Source: Candidatus Bathyarchaeia archaeon (GTDB taxonomy: Archaea > Thermoproteota > Bathyarchaeia > Bathyarchaeales > Bathycorpusculaceae). Taken from it: 24,964 nucleotides of DNA. The notes under the pieces were generated by a model. The model saw only the letters and a program-made list of their open reading frames with translations. It was not told the origin of the DNA and ran no database searches. Both the position numbers and the translations under genes were made by a program. Positions within the stretch are counted from its first letter, which is position 1. Each line of letters begins with the position of its first letter. Positions 18,783 to 19,844 of this stretch are shown here, one piece after another. The DNA is taken from NCBI GenBank assembly GCA_038869575.1, contig JAWCQV010000001.1, forward strand, positions 1-24,964, given 5' to 3'.

Positions 18783-19238
18783 ATGAAAATGTCGGATTAC
18801 AGCCGCAGAAGACGCTCAATCTTCGACATAATAAATGAGTATTTTGAAAACTTTGAAGCATTGGCTGAAAGGGTAAGAGAAACCATTATGGAGAGACCCA
18901 GCTGGAACTGTAGAACATGCACCATGGAACCTTTAAGAGATATTATGGTAACAGCCAACGAAGTAGTAGTGACTGTTGACTTGCCCTACGCTGAGCAAAA
19001 CACAATAGAAGTTAAACCCATTGGCAAAGATATTATAGAGATTTCGGCTAAAATGAGGCGTAAAATAAGTTTTGACGATTTCGGTATAACTCATCATAGA
19101 GGCGAGTTCCAGAAGTTTTACTGCCAGACGAGGATTCCGGTGCCCGTCTACATGAACCGCATGGAAATCCGATTCAAGCGGGGACTATTAGAAATTCGCT
19201 TCCCGAGAAAACACGAGTACGAAATTCCGATAGAATGA
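18783..19238 (+). CDS. hsp20: Small heat shock protein (Hsp20/alpha-crystallin)
   Basis: EPLRDIMVTANEVVVTVDLP and RIPVPV...FKRGLLEIRFPR (alpha-crystallin GxLxI motif), C-terminal IPIE (IxI motif). Confidence 0.85.
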   Translation: MKMSDYSRRRRSIFDIINEYFENFEALAERVRETIMERPSWNCRTCTMEPLRDIMVTANEVVVTVDLPYAEQNTIEVKPIGKDIIEISAKMRRKISFDDFGITHHRGEFQKFYCQTRIPVPVYMNRMEIRFKRGLLEIRFPRKHEYEIPIE

Positions 19239-19300
19239 AGCCTCAGCTCTCCTCAGTCGTCGTCACAATTCAGACGGCTCTTCTTGCATCATTGGCTTCA
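19236..19300 (-). ncRNA. Box C/D 2'-O-methylation guide sRNA
   Basis: Minus strand 5'-UGAAGCC A AUGAUGC AAGAAGAGCCGU CUGA AUU GUGACGA CGACUGAGGAGAG CUGA GGCUUCA-3'. It has a 7-bp terminal stem, C box (6/7), 12-nt guide, perfect D', C' (6/7), 13-nt guide and perfect D. Confidence 0.85.
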
Positions 19301-19355
19301 AAAAAACAAAAGCAAAACAGACAAATAAGCTTAATGAAAAATGTAAATAAAAACT
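19301..19355 (-). terminator. U-rich tract downstream of aIF5A (candidate terminator and/or sRNA promoter region)
   Basis: Minus strand TTTTTATTTACATTTTTC...TTTTGCTTTTGTTTTTT immediately upstream of the sRNA. Confidence 0.35.
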
Positions 19356-19451
19356 GGCTATCTTGCTGAACGAGAAAAACAATTCTTGAGGTTTATAAGG
19401 ATCAAGTACAAAGGCGCTACACTAACATGAACTAGAGCAGTAGTGATCAAG

Positions 19452-19844
19452 CTATTTTGCTCTTACAATCTTAATTTTGCCAAGTATTTTCCAATATTCG
19501 ATTTCAACGCCGGGAGATAGCTTAGCCTTAAGCTCTTCCTCTTCAGGGTATGGCGCGTCCAAATATTCGTAGGTTTCTAAGTCCATAATCTGGACGCTCG
19601 TGGGTGTGACGGCGAAAATTTGCCCGCTTCTCTTTTCTATTATAGGCACTTCAGCTGTTGCATCTACAGGTTTAACGATACTTCTTTTAACACCGTCGAA
19701 GACGCCTATAGCAACTATTCGAGCCTTGGCGGAGCCATGCTTTCCCGGCTTAGATTTCGTTATCTCAACTATTCTGCATGGTTCACCATCAACTATAAGG
19801 TAGCCGCCTTCTCTTAGGCTTCCAACATCAACAGGCTTGCTCAT
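19452..19844 (-). CDS. eif5a: Translation factor aIF5A (eIF5A)
   Basis: Hypusination motif SKPGKHGSAKAR and IDGEPC-like region. SD GGTGATGAT upstream. Confidence 0.97.
   Translation of the reverse strand: MSKPVDVGSLREGGYLIVDGEPCRIVEITKSKPGKHGSAKARIVAIGVFDGVKRSIVKPVDATAEVPIIEKRSGQIFAVTPTSVQIMDLETYEYLDAPYPEEEELKAKLSPGVEIEYWKILGKIKIVRAK

Follow-up and report, generated by a model that had tools for sequence, protein, structure and literature searches.

The interval between an Hsp20-like gene and the gene for aIF5A raises the question of whether the 65 nt at 19236-19300 (minus strand) specify an RNA of their own and, if so, how that RNA is transcribed and what it acts upon. A preliminary description of the window (the whole 24,964 nt stretch of DNA analysed here) had proposed a minus-strand box C/D layout, with a perfect 7-bp terminal stem and guide spacers of 12-13 nt. 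The sequence reads exactly so: from 19300 to 19236 it is UGAAGCC-A-AUGAUGC-12 nt-CUGA-AUU-GUGACGA-13 nt-CUGA-GGCUUCA. The parts of this element and the genes on either side of it are as follows.

19236-19300, minus strand: putative box C/D sRNA gene, 65 nt from stem to stem, delimited by its sequence and as the sole match in the genome for the architecture
19294-19300, minus strand: 5' strand of the terminal stem, UGAAGCC, pairing with 19236-19242; canonical (C) stem of the predicted k-turn
19293, minus strand: A between the 5' stem strand and box C, read from the sequence
19286-19292, minus strand: box C, AUGAUGC, in which position 7 is C and not the consensus A
19274-19285, minus strand: D' guide, 12 nt, AAGAAGAGCCGU; positions 2-10 from box D' can pair with LSU rRNA CGGCUCUUC
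19270-19273, minus strand: box D', CUGA, read from the sequence and homologues
19267-19269, minus strand: D'/C' loop, AUU, 3 nt (k-loop), read from the sequence and homologues
19260-19266, minus strand: box C', GUGACGA, departing from the consensus with C at position 5
19247-19259, minus strand: D guide, 13 nt, CGACUGAGGAGAG, giving no match in the target search
19243-19246, minus strand: box D, CUGA, read from the sequence and homologues
19236-19242, minus strand: GGCUUCA, 3' strand of the terminal stem; the convergent Hsp20-like ORF has its stop codon antisense to the final 3 nt
19452-19844, minus strand: aIF5A gene, upstream and on the same strand, with Pfam IF5A-like_N and eIF-5a domains
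18783-19238, plus strand: convergent Hsp20-like ORF

The naming of the neighbours as aIF5A and hsp20 is borne out by Pfam for the first and stands only in part for the second, as the match to Pfam HSP20 is weak (E 0.004, 17.6 bits) and falls below the 20.8-bit cut-off. The overlap in antisense between the end of the element and the hsp20 stop codon was described correctly; the TGA at 19236-19238 lies inside the 3' stem strand, and the two genes share 3 nt only.

The sequence contains the elements by which box C/D RNAs are recognized. The RUGAUGA of the class is represented near the 5' end by box C, and CUGA is found near the 3' end, with the GA dinucleotides of the sheared pairs intact. The internal C'/D' motif (CUGA, a 3-nt loop and GUGACGA) is also in place and is common to the homologues, and the terminal helix, followed by a 3-nt bulge (A-A-U) and then by box C with its GA, would provide what a k-turn requires in sequence. 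The minimum free energy fold has the perfect 7-bp stem as its outer helix, and its energy does not stand out (z = -1.5), which is usual for RNAs of the C/D kind. A regular expression for the box architecture matched once in both strands of the 757,644-bp assembly, at the locus itself, and not at all in 40 genomes simulated with a first-order Markov model. At three stringencies, no further C/D sRNA was detected by this means in the 757-kb assembly, and in the simulated controls two of the patterns gave no matches while the loosest gave 0-2. A chance origin of the box arrangement is excluded.

The preliminary description had called for an Rfam scan, and no family reached its gathering threshold anywhere in the window. 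Below that level, all 18 matches in the region were to C/D families on the minus strand, and the only five matches with E<=1 in the whole window were all located at the sRNA locus. The best models were sR2 (RF01139; 26.2 bits, E 5e-4, gathering score 42) and snoPyro_CD (RF00095; 24.5 bits, gathering score 45), while SNORD49 (RF00277) scored 21.5 against a gathering score of 37. Both sR2 and snoPyro_CD matched over the full length of the model with boxes and spacing aligned, but their guides have no similarity to those of the bathyarchaeal sRNA. The latter would appear to function like members of the sR2, snoPyro_CD and SNORD49 families, yet falls outside every curated one.

A search of related Bathyarchaeia, also suggested earlier, recovered 104 distinct homologues, nearly all from Bathyarchaeia metagenome-assembled genomes (MAGs), and the covariance model of the family (R1) matches exactly 19236-19300 (minus strand) with 82.7 bits. 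Boxes, D' guide, 12-nt D' spacer, 3-nt loop and terminal stem are conserved among the homologues, whereas the D guide and the sequences on either side of the element differ, a pattern typical of a guide RNA. Box C is AUGAUGC in 97 of the 104, box D' is CUGA in 91 and CGGA in 13, box C' is GUGAAGA or GUGACGA in 89, and box D is CUGA in 103. The D'/C' loop measures 3 nt in 91 homologues, and the A at position 7 of box C' is able to pair with the U preceding D' in 102. The D' guide core GAAGAGCCGU occurs in 103, and the D' spacer is 12 nt long in all 104, close to the length considered optimal (about 12 nt); the D spacer, 13 nt at this locus, departs from that optimum with a range of 9 to 31 nt, and the D side is atypical in many homologues. 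In an alignment of 63 sequences, 92.7% of the cells of the terminal stem are paired, compared with 29-56% when the partner columns are slid, and two-sided changes are found at four of the seven pairs, including CG to UA and AU to GC. RNAalifold prefers to pair the D' guide with box D and the 3' stem strand; this helix was rejected as the functional fold because its columns are all invariant and show no two-sided changes, and in one sequence (G030) compensation occurs in the terminal stem instead. Conservation is sharply confined to the 65 nt across families, with both flanks diverging.

These data bear on the view that there is no functional RNA here, and that the locus consists of chance boxes, a hairpin terminator or a conserved 3' element of hsp20 or aIF5A. 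The modest fold z-score and the lack of a gathering-level Rfam match would suit that view, which is nevertheless extremely improbable given the absence of the pattern from all simulated genomes, the limits of conservation just described, the compensatory changes in the stem, the shape of the element (a 7-bp stem around 51 nt is not that of a terminator) and its occurrence in some genomes without either neighbouring gene. Support for an archaeal C/D guide sRNA, as first proposed, comes from the sub-threshold Rfam matches, the 104 homologues and the presence of the cognate protein genes in the genus, where an adjacent Nop5-fibrillarin pair is encoded by 10 of 13 relatives and L7Ae by 12 of 13. 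In the MAG itself, which is 65% complete, genes for Nop5, L7Ae and rRNA were not found and the fibrillarin-like match is weak, absences that are probably attributable to its incompleteness. These 65 nt very probably constitute a real archaeal gene for a box C/D guide RNA that had escaped annotation; they add a new guide RNA to a well-known class and are a sound gain for annotation, though the gene is ordinary in kind.

To identify the target of the D' guide, the rRNAs of relatives stood in for those missing from the MAG. Nine of nine contiguous Watson-Crick pairs can form between the D' guide and LSU rRNA CGGCUCUUC of relatives G005 and G021, in agreement with the complementarity of at least 8-9 bp, with a nucleotide at N+5, that is needed of a guide; the D guide shows none. 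The target site is identical in all 12 LSU sequences of relatives that cover it. The N+5 nucleotide is the C of CGGC*U, which is C2651 in G005 and corresponds to E. coli C2510 and to C2784 of the published alignment (Dennis et al. 2015, PMC4644070). The D' guide most likely directs ribose methylation of the C2510 equivalent, in helix 90 of the peptidyl-transferase centre. Shuffled guides equalled the LSU score in 110 of 2000 trials, so that complementarity to LSU rRNA alone is only modestly significant.

A second candidate for the D' guide was weighed seriously, namely SSU rRNA at ACGGC*UUUUC (C432 in the 16S rRNA of G005, in the helix 16/17 region), which would leave the RNA a genuine C/D sRNA with a different substrate. 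The duplex with ACGGCUUUUC of the genus relatives starts at position 1 and comprises 10 pairs (9 Watson-Crick and one G-U); it scores slightly above the LSU duplex, and shuffled guides did as well in just 39 of 2000 trials. However, the SSU stretch varies under an identical guide (AUGGCUUUUC, AUGGCUUUUG, GUGGCUUUUG, AUGGCUUUUA), with changes that introduce G-U pairs and mismatches and are compensated within the SSU helix, not in the guide, whereas the LSU site is invariant, and guides to that LSU nucleotide or stretch exist in humans and in several other archaea. On these grounds of conservation, the SSU site is disfavoured and considered unlikely to be the target.

The LSU site itself is not new, as its guiding is already known in other archaea and humans. 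Guides to the same LSU stretch are present in the sequences of S. acidocaldarius sR7, M. kandleri sR7 and sR45, T. tenax sR150 and I. hospitalis sR165. The human equivalent of E. coli C2510 is presumably Cm4456, from its offset to Um4498/Gm4499 in the human sequence. Human 28S Cm4456 (Cm4426 in older numbering) is assigned to SNORD49 (U49, RF00277) (PMC9941101, PMC11550049). The D' guide and D' box of the Rfam SNORD49 consensus, GGAAGUGCCGUCAGA, align with AGAAGAGCCGUCUGA of the bathyarchaeal sRNA, but SNORD49 is a eukaryotic nucleolar snoRNA and the similarity is limited to what a shared target would force. Among archaeal RNAs, M. kandleri sR7 and I. hospitalis sR473 are listed for C2784, i.e. 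predicted methylation of exactly the same nucleotide, E. coli C2510 (Dennis et al. 2015, PMC4644070). In M. kandleri sR7 it is the D guide, not the D' guide, that carries GGAGAGCCG, and in both RNAs, which come from other phyla, the partner guides and overall sequences are unrelated to the bathyarchaeal sRNA. The closest overall design, compared by layout, is that of S. acidocaldarius sR7, with box C, a 12-nt D' guide, D', a 3-nt loop, a C' starting GUGAC, and CUGA (PMC4644070). Its D' guide contains AAGAGCCG against the same LSU stretch, and its D spacer is long (19 nt); the register of the guide is shifted by one, so that the predicted site is G2783 (E. coli G2509), adjacent to C2510, and it differs further in having a canonical box C (GAUGAUGA), UGGA as D', no 7-bp terminal stem and another D guide. 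T. tenax sR150, which the target tables of Dennis et al. 2015 name sR50/T50, is a dual guide directed at the rRNA regions used by most Bathyarchaeia copies, helix 90 (CGUCUCUUCC) and helix 89 (CCAUCGACCC), but with the guides swapped (D' to helix 89, D to helix 90) and in different registers (U2783, U2753).

The D guide gave a less uniform picture. Its element GAGGAGAG is kept in genera g1, g5, g6, g12 and g13, but CGACUGAGGAGAG found no match better than those of shuffled guides in the LSU and SSU rRNAs of G005 and G021, and no target among the six tRNAs that aragorn found in its own genome or in the flanks of rRNA operons. In the genomes of five relatives, the pattern CTCTCCTYAG returned only the antisense of the sRNA itself and chance-level sites. 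Two clustered sites in G005 were discarded, since they lie in antisense within a 534-aa ORF where Rfam recognizes no RNA, as was a 6-bp match to CUCUUC beside the D' target, which is too short. The D guide of the genus (...UGAGGAGAG) is best regarded as an orphan, without a detectable rRNA or tRNA target. Elsewhere in the Bathyarchaeia, D guides match nearby parts of LSU domain V, either GCUG*GGUUUA, which judging from the sequences is able to pair with the D' target stretch, or CCCCAU in helix 89, and in other genera there are matches to LSU GCUGGGUUUA over 10-11 bp. For genera with the AAACCCAGCG D guide, a Gm is predicted at GCUG*GGUUU. The target is CCCUAU and the guide AUAGGGA in G023, where elsewhere they are CCCCAU and AUGGGG. 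The register of the AUGGGG element relative to box D varies across the family, and the predicted N+5 nucleotide drifts with it. Dual guides often bracket one rRNA region, and D guides directed near the D' target in other Bathyarchaeia fit this arrangement.

Whether the sRNA is transcribed by itself or as part of a longer transcript was left as two alternatives in the preliminary description, processing from the aIF5A transcript or a promoter of its own. Two features upstream of the sRNA are relevant.

19322-19336, minus strand: predicted BRE/TATA promoter, CATTAAGCTTATTTG, with position-specific conservation in 102 homologues
[quoted passage not shown]

The BRE/TATA-like element precedes the first stem base by about 26 nt, and at this locus the TATA-like sequence is CTTATTT (-29 to -23 from that base). 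Across the 102 homologues there is an A-rich stretch at -33 to -31 and TTT(A/T)TTT at -29 to -23. This conserved element at -33 to -23 points to an own promoter, from which the sRNA gene would be transcribed, and of the two earlier alternatives it is the one that is favoured. Cleavage of a promoterless sRNA from the 3' UTR of the aIF5A transcript has in its favour that aIF5A lies upstream on the same strand at 71 of the 104 loci, and that archaeal C/D sRNAs are known that are co-transcribed and processed (Lui et al. 2018, PMC6009581). It appears quite unlikely, since 102 homologues share the element at the canonical distance whereas the rest of the spacer shows no conservation even within the genus, the T-rich tract comes just before the sRNA, no aIF5A is seen upstream at 33 of the 104 loci (11 of the 104 had less than 600 nt of upstream sequence), and in G029 the sRNA and the aIF5A match are on separate contigs. 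The T-rich tract could act as a stop signal for aIF5A transcripts. In metatranscriptome run X9, a 262-nt contig, 100% identical, spans 19061-19322, and there is no contig over aIF5A; such contigs are undirected and carry no strand or size, and this one could represent hsp20 read-through, as it also spans the 3' half of the Hsp20-like gene. Expression of the ~65-nt sRNA is only hinted at.

The position of the Hsp20-like gene invites other readings of function. A homologue of it is found tail-to-tail with the sRNA at 44 of the 104 loci, at a median distance of at most 8 nt. The RNA might form a C/D RNP whose main role is not methylation, acting instead as a folding chaperone that clamps helices 89/90 or as a cis-antisense partner of the hsp20 mRNA. 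This arrangement, the RNA contig that covers the 3' half of hsp20 together with the sRNA, the orphan D guide at this locus, and the variable length and register on the D side speak for such a role, and it has been discussed whether C/D sRNAs that overlap gene 3' ends in antisense might have a regulatory effect (PMC6009581). The D' side, on the other hand, is fully canonical, with its 12-nt spacer, invariant guide and, at N+5, a nucleotide known to be methylated in other organisms, while the linkage to hsp20 is missing at more than half of the loci and the overlap is just 3 nt; a main role other than methylation is accordingly held to be distinctly improbable. A related and speculative idea, itself unlikely, is that the conserved placement of the sRNA gene tail-to-tail with a small heat-shock gene serves a function and couples methylation of the peptidyl-transferase centre to stress. 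A terminator would not fit between the Hsp20-like gene and the sRNA gene, so hsp20 read-through transcripts would be fully antisense to the sRNA and, on heat shock, could titrate the sRNP, become methylated or block sRNA transcription. In a milder variant, only the drifting D side would serve as a folding clamp on helices 89/90 and not as a methylation guide.

The best explanation, held with good confidence, is that an archaeal box C/D guide sRNA is encoded at 19236-19300 (minus strand) by a gene that is transcribed independently, and that its D' guide directs methylation of the C2510 equivalent. Following the established mechanism of the class, the terminal stem and A-A-U bulge, with the GA of box C facing that of box D, would form the k-turn, and the D' CUGA, 3-nt loop and C' GUGACGA the k-loop; two L7Ae molecules would bind these motifs, and dimers of Nop5 and fibrillarin would assemble on the L7Ae-bound RNA. 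The D' guide would then pair with the 5' strand of helix 90 in 23S rRNA, and fibrillarin would 2'-O-methylate the nucleotide opposite guide base five, counted upstream from D'.

No papers on C/D sRNAs in Bathyarchaeia were found in the literature searched. The finding adds a class-wide non-coding RNA gene to the annotation of the Bathyarchaeia, abundant uncultured archaea, for which there is no matching Rfam family, and the alignment (A2) and model R1 may serve as a seed for a new one. As the only canonical C/D candidate in 757 kb, the locus suggests a small guide repertoire that retains the C2510-equivalent site. The sRNA predicts a specific ribose methylation at this position in the ribosomal catalytic centre of Bathyarchaeia, and would add one more lineage at one of the few rRNA positions for which guided methylation is shared by Euryarchaeota, Thermoproteota and eukaryotes (SNORD49).

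The minus strand from 19300 to 19236 reads exactly as in the preliminary description of a 65-nt candidate box C/D guide RNA gene (here sRNA). Its elements are listed below with the neighboring genes and an upstream element.

Features of the sRNA locus (window coordinates; sRNA elements from the sequence read)
19452-19844, minus: aIF5A ORF (Pfam IF5A-like_N, eIF-5a)
19336-19322, minus: BRE/TATA-like element CATTAAGCTTATTTG (conservation in 102 homologues)
19300-19294, minus: 5' stem strand UGAAGCC
19293, minus: single A after the 5' stem strand
19292-19286, minus: box C AUGAUGC
19285-19274, minus: D' spacer, 12 nt, AAGAAGAGCCGU
19273-19270, minus: box D' CUGA
19269-19267, minus: loop AUU
19266-19260, minus: box C' GUGACGA
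19259-19247, minus: D spacer, 13 nt, CGACUGAGGAGAG
19246-19243, minus: box D CUGA
19242-19236, minus: 3' stem strand GGCUUCA
18783-19238, plus: Hsp20-like ORF (weak Pfam HSP20 match)

The perfect 7-bp terminal stem closes the minimum-free-energy fold, which has an unexceptional energy (z = -1.5), and ordinary fold energies are normal for the C/D RNA class. The reported overlap with the hsp20 stop codon was also found, the TGA of the plus-strand ORF lying within the 3' stem strand, and the upstream minus-strand ORF is aIF5A as described. The hsp20 assignment held in part: the match covers the whole alpha-crystallin profile, but the Pfam HSP20 match is weak (E 0.004, 17.6 bits against a cut-off of 20.8 bits), and its sequence marks the product as a divergent alpha-crystallin-like protein, whose C-terminal ...HEYEIPIE motif many relatives share.

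Searched on both strands with a regular expression of the four boxes that tolerates variable spacing, the 757,644-bp assembly gave a single match, at the sRNA site, and 40 first-order Markov genomes of equal length gave 0. With two looser patterns the sRNA site was again the sole match in the assembly; in simulated genomes the first of them had 0 matches and the second 0-2. The sRNA is the only canonical C/D candidate in this genome (757 kb assembled) at three pattern stringencies, which suggests either a very small C/D repertoire or further guides with degenerate boxes and without a terminal stem. At gathering scores, an Rfam scan attained no family at the sRNA, which is in no curated Rfam family. 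A permissive scan of 19150-19460 gave 18 matches, every one to a C/D-box family, in minus-strand orientation and aligned to the boxes, with sR2 (26.2 bits, E 5e-4) and snoPyro_CD (24.5 bits) scoring highest; across the entire window, the five matches at E <= 1 all lie at the sRNA locus. This check, proposed in the preliminary description, returned C/D-box families only, yet all below gathering score.

In a DNA search of 60 relatives, the 65-nt sRNA proved to be kept far outside the genus, with match ends that often coincide precisely with its own, and 39 copies were extracted and aligned. An exact pattern consisting of part of box C, the D' guide (the spacer 5' of box D') and D' matched at least 120 stretches in the genomes of 185,579 species. 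Among the matches listed, those with the full architecture were all in Bathyarchaeia/Bathyarchaeota MAGs, bar a few otherwise-labelled contigs. The bacterial matches are GC-rich coding sequence in which the rest of the motif is absent. Four loci with Bathyarchaeia sRNA copies (L067, L127, L113 and L117) are filed as Candidatus Sulfotelmatobacter, Candidatus Acidoferrum, Nitrososphaerota and 'uncultured archaeon', and are probably mis-binned or coarsely labelled contigs; the copy in L067 runs off the end of the locus.

Pooling the relatives' copies with the exact-pattern matches listed gave 104 distinct sRNA sequences. Box C is AUGAUGC in 97 of these, the D' spacer is exactly 12 nt in all 104, the D' guide carries GAAGAGCCGU in 103, and box D' is CUGA (91) or CGGA (13). 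The 3-nt loop is found in 91, C' is GUGAAGA or GUGACGA in 89 and box D is CUGA in 103; the D spacer ranges from 9 to 31 nt. In the terminal stem, which was left out of the exact-pattern search, 92.7% of cells are paired, sliding the partner columns lowers this to 29-56%, and four of the seven pairs show changes on both sides (e.g., CG to UA, AU to GC), with G-U intermediates. The comparison with related genomes therefore came out in favor of the original proposal: boxes and stem are conserved in Bathyarchaeia, while the flanking spacer between aIF5A and the sRNA diverges even within the genus. A covariance model (R1) built from the homologue alignment (A2) has one match in its own genome, exactly at 19236-19300 on the minus strand (82.7 bits). 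Across genomes sampled evenly from the class, searched with stricter filters by which weak matches were lost, R1 matched 30 of 151, including 14 of 15 in its own family. The copy in G026, a relative with a single-contig 0.9-Mb genome, looks degenerate (L039:1505-1569; box C AUGAAAC, box D CUAA, D' guide GAAGAAUCGU, one stem mismatch) and could be an sRNA gene undergoing decay in a reduced genome.

There are no rRNA genes in the MAG, so targets were sought in the LSU (23S) and SSU (16S) rRNAs of relatives. Numbered from D', positions 2-10 of the D' guide are Watson-Crick complementary to LSU CGGCUCUUC (nine pairs), and position 1 (U) is able to pair with A7 of box C', as it is in 102 of the 104 homologues. 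The LSU stretch GAUGUCGGCUCUUCC is identical in all 12 relatives' LSU sequences covering the site. The base methylated by C/D guides is that paired with the fifth guide nucleotide from D' or D, and by this rule the predicted methyl group falls on the C of CGGC*U, or C2651 in the relative G005. In Dennis et al. 2015 (PMC4644070, supplementary alignment with a numbered E. coli row), this C occupies column 84 of its block, which is E. coli C2510 and alignment C2784. The D' guide could instead act on SSU rRNA, where ACGGCUUUUC in genus relatives offers a slightly better match (ten pairs, one of them G-U), and among 2000 shuffled guides, 39 reached the real guide's score on SSU and 110 that on LSU. 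However, the SSU stretch varies (AUGG..., GUGG..., ...UUUG, ...UUUA) where the guide is identical, and its changes are compensated inside an SSU hairpin, not in the guide. Because of this variability under an identical guide the LSU target is preferred, and the LSU is very likely the rRNA on which the D' guide would act.

For the same nucleotide, 23S C2784, M. kandleri sR7 and sR473 are predicted guides, sR473 being assigned to I. hospitalis by the I473 marker in the alignment, and the same LSU stretch is addressed by guides of S. acidocaldarius sR7, M. kandleri sR7 and sR45, T. tenax sR150 and I. hospitalis sR165 (PMC4644070). In S. acidocaldarius sR7, UGGA comes after the D' guide CAAAGAGCCGAA, and a 3-nt loop then leads to a C' box that begins with GUGAC; Dennis et al. 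describe helices 90-93 as a methylation hotspot (PMC4644070). Human 28S Cm4456 (Cm4426 in older numbering) has been assigned to SNORD49A/B (PMC9941101, PMC11550049). The guide and D' box of the Rfam SNORD49 consensus align with those of the sRNA, consistent with 4456 being C2510. We take Um4498/Gm4499 to be the equivalents of A-loop U2552/G2553, so that human 4456 would be C2510.

The D guide (the spacer 5' of box D) has a conserved core, (U)CUGAGGAGAG, in the genus and four neighboring genera. It had no match beyond shuffled guides in LSU or SSU and no target in the six aragorn tRNAs of the MAG or the rRNA operon flanks, and in five relatives' genomes it found the sRNA's own antisense and chance-level matches only; from these searches, it is an orphan in its own genus. 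In other genera, the D guide AAACCCAGCG forms 10-11 bp with LSU GCUG*GGUUUA, where N+5 is the E. coli G2581 equivalent. CGGCUC and GAGCUG are able to pair mutually, with one G-U, and are presumably the two strands of helix 90. A D guide (A)AUGGGG(AA), also in other genera, is complementary to LSU CCCCAU in helix 89, which lies about 30 nt 5' of the D' target, and in G023 rRNA CCCUAU and guide AUAGGGA form a compensatory pair of changes. AUGGGG lies at varying distances from box D (GGGG, GGGGA, GGGGAA, GGGGAAA, longer), so that the base predicted to be methylated shifts. In Pyrobaculum, ancestral dual-guide sRNAs with orphan guides, dual guides to sites <100 nt apart and 3'-antisense overlap of sRNAs with protein genes are described (PMC6009581). 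The LSU match of the genus relative G010 (L183, G010:C11:40085-43928) is 3,844 nt long against about 3,020-3,080 nt in other relatives, implying roughly 760 inserted nt 5' of the peptidyl-transferase region, which may be an rRNA intron.

With A2 as input, RNAalifold favors a different 7-bp helix, joining the D' guide (GAGCC-GUC) to box D and the 3' stem strand (GA-GGCUU), or 19236-19246 with 19272-19280 of the minus strand in the consensus. What allows this pairing is the likeness of the 3' stem strand GGCUUC to the rRNA target CGGCUCUUC. The helix lacks covariation, every column being invariant, and in G030 it is the 5' stem strand, not the guide, that compensates for a change in the 3' strand. 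It was rejected as the functional fold, the compensatory change being in the terminal stem instead, and may be a competing or self-masking conformer.

Two origins had been proposed for the transcript, a promoter of its own or processing from the aIF5A transcript, and the first of these is favored. The 60 bases 5' of 102 homologues show position-specific conservation, with an A-rich triplet at -33 to -31 and TTT(A/T)TTT at -29 to -23, numbered from the first stem base. Archaeal TATA boxes are canonically centred near -26, and since the TATA-like element lies at this distance, we infer that the sRNA has its own promoter, from which transcription would start at or beside the terminal stem. Processing from aIF5A is disfavored, as the remainder of the intervening spacer is unconserved even among members of the genus, a T-rich tract (19317-19301) lies directly 5' of the sRNA, and in G029 the sRNA and the aIF5A match sit on separate contigs. 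Moreover, the synteny is common, not obligatory: of the 104 loci, 71 have aIF5A upstream on the same strand and 44 have a convergent Hsp20-like gene (median 8 nt away). A second conserved motif, approximately TTGTTAAAAGATTTTCC, lies just 5' of the BRE/TATA-like element at about -56 to -36 (window about 19336-19356) and recurs across genera and families at many loci (e.g., L019, L020, L024, L027, L028); it could be an aIF5A terminator or a regulator site.

A true RNA-seq metatranscriptome (X9) contains a 262-nt contig, 100% identical, over 19061-19322, a second contig with a relative's version of the sRNA, and no contig over aIF5A, a pattern that argues for transcription and not DNA carry-over. 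In the metatranscriptome check suggested in the preliminary description the sRNA region is thus covered, but the read evidence is weak: the 262-nt contig is strandless, also spans the 3' half of hsp20 and may be hsp20 read-through. Depth peaks over the sRNA in sequencing runs X2 and X4, probably DNA libraries, represent many relatives sharing the conserved sequence. A 2026 size-fractionated metatranscriptome (X14, raw reads) belongs to the same hot-spring study as the DNA-like runs containing the window.

Recognisable Nop5 and L7Ae were not found in the MAG (65% complete) and its fibrillarin-like match is weak; among genus relatives, 10 of 13 have an adjacent Nop5-fibrillarin pair and 12 of 13 have L7Ae. 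A literature search listed no paper on Bathyarchaeia C/D sRNAs, and every aspect of the sRNA has precedents. Its identification as a box C/D guide is borne out by the boxes, the stem, the Rfam C/D-family matches and the conservation throughout Bathyarchaeia. On this comparative sequence evidence, it is very probably a real gene for a box C/D methylation guide, transcribed from a promoter of its own, and would most probably direct Cm at the 23S rRNA nucleotide equivalent to C2510.
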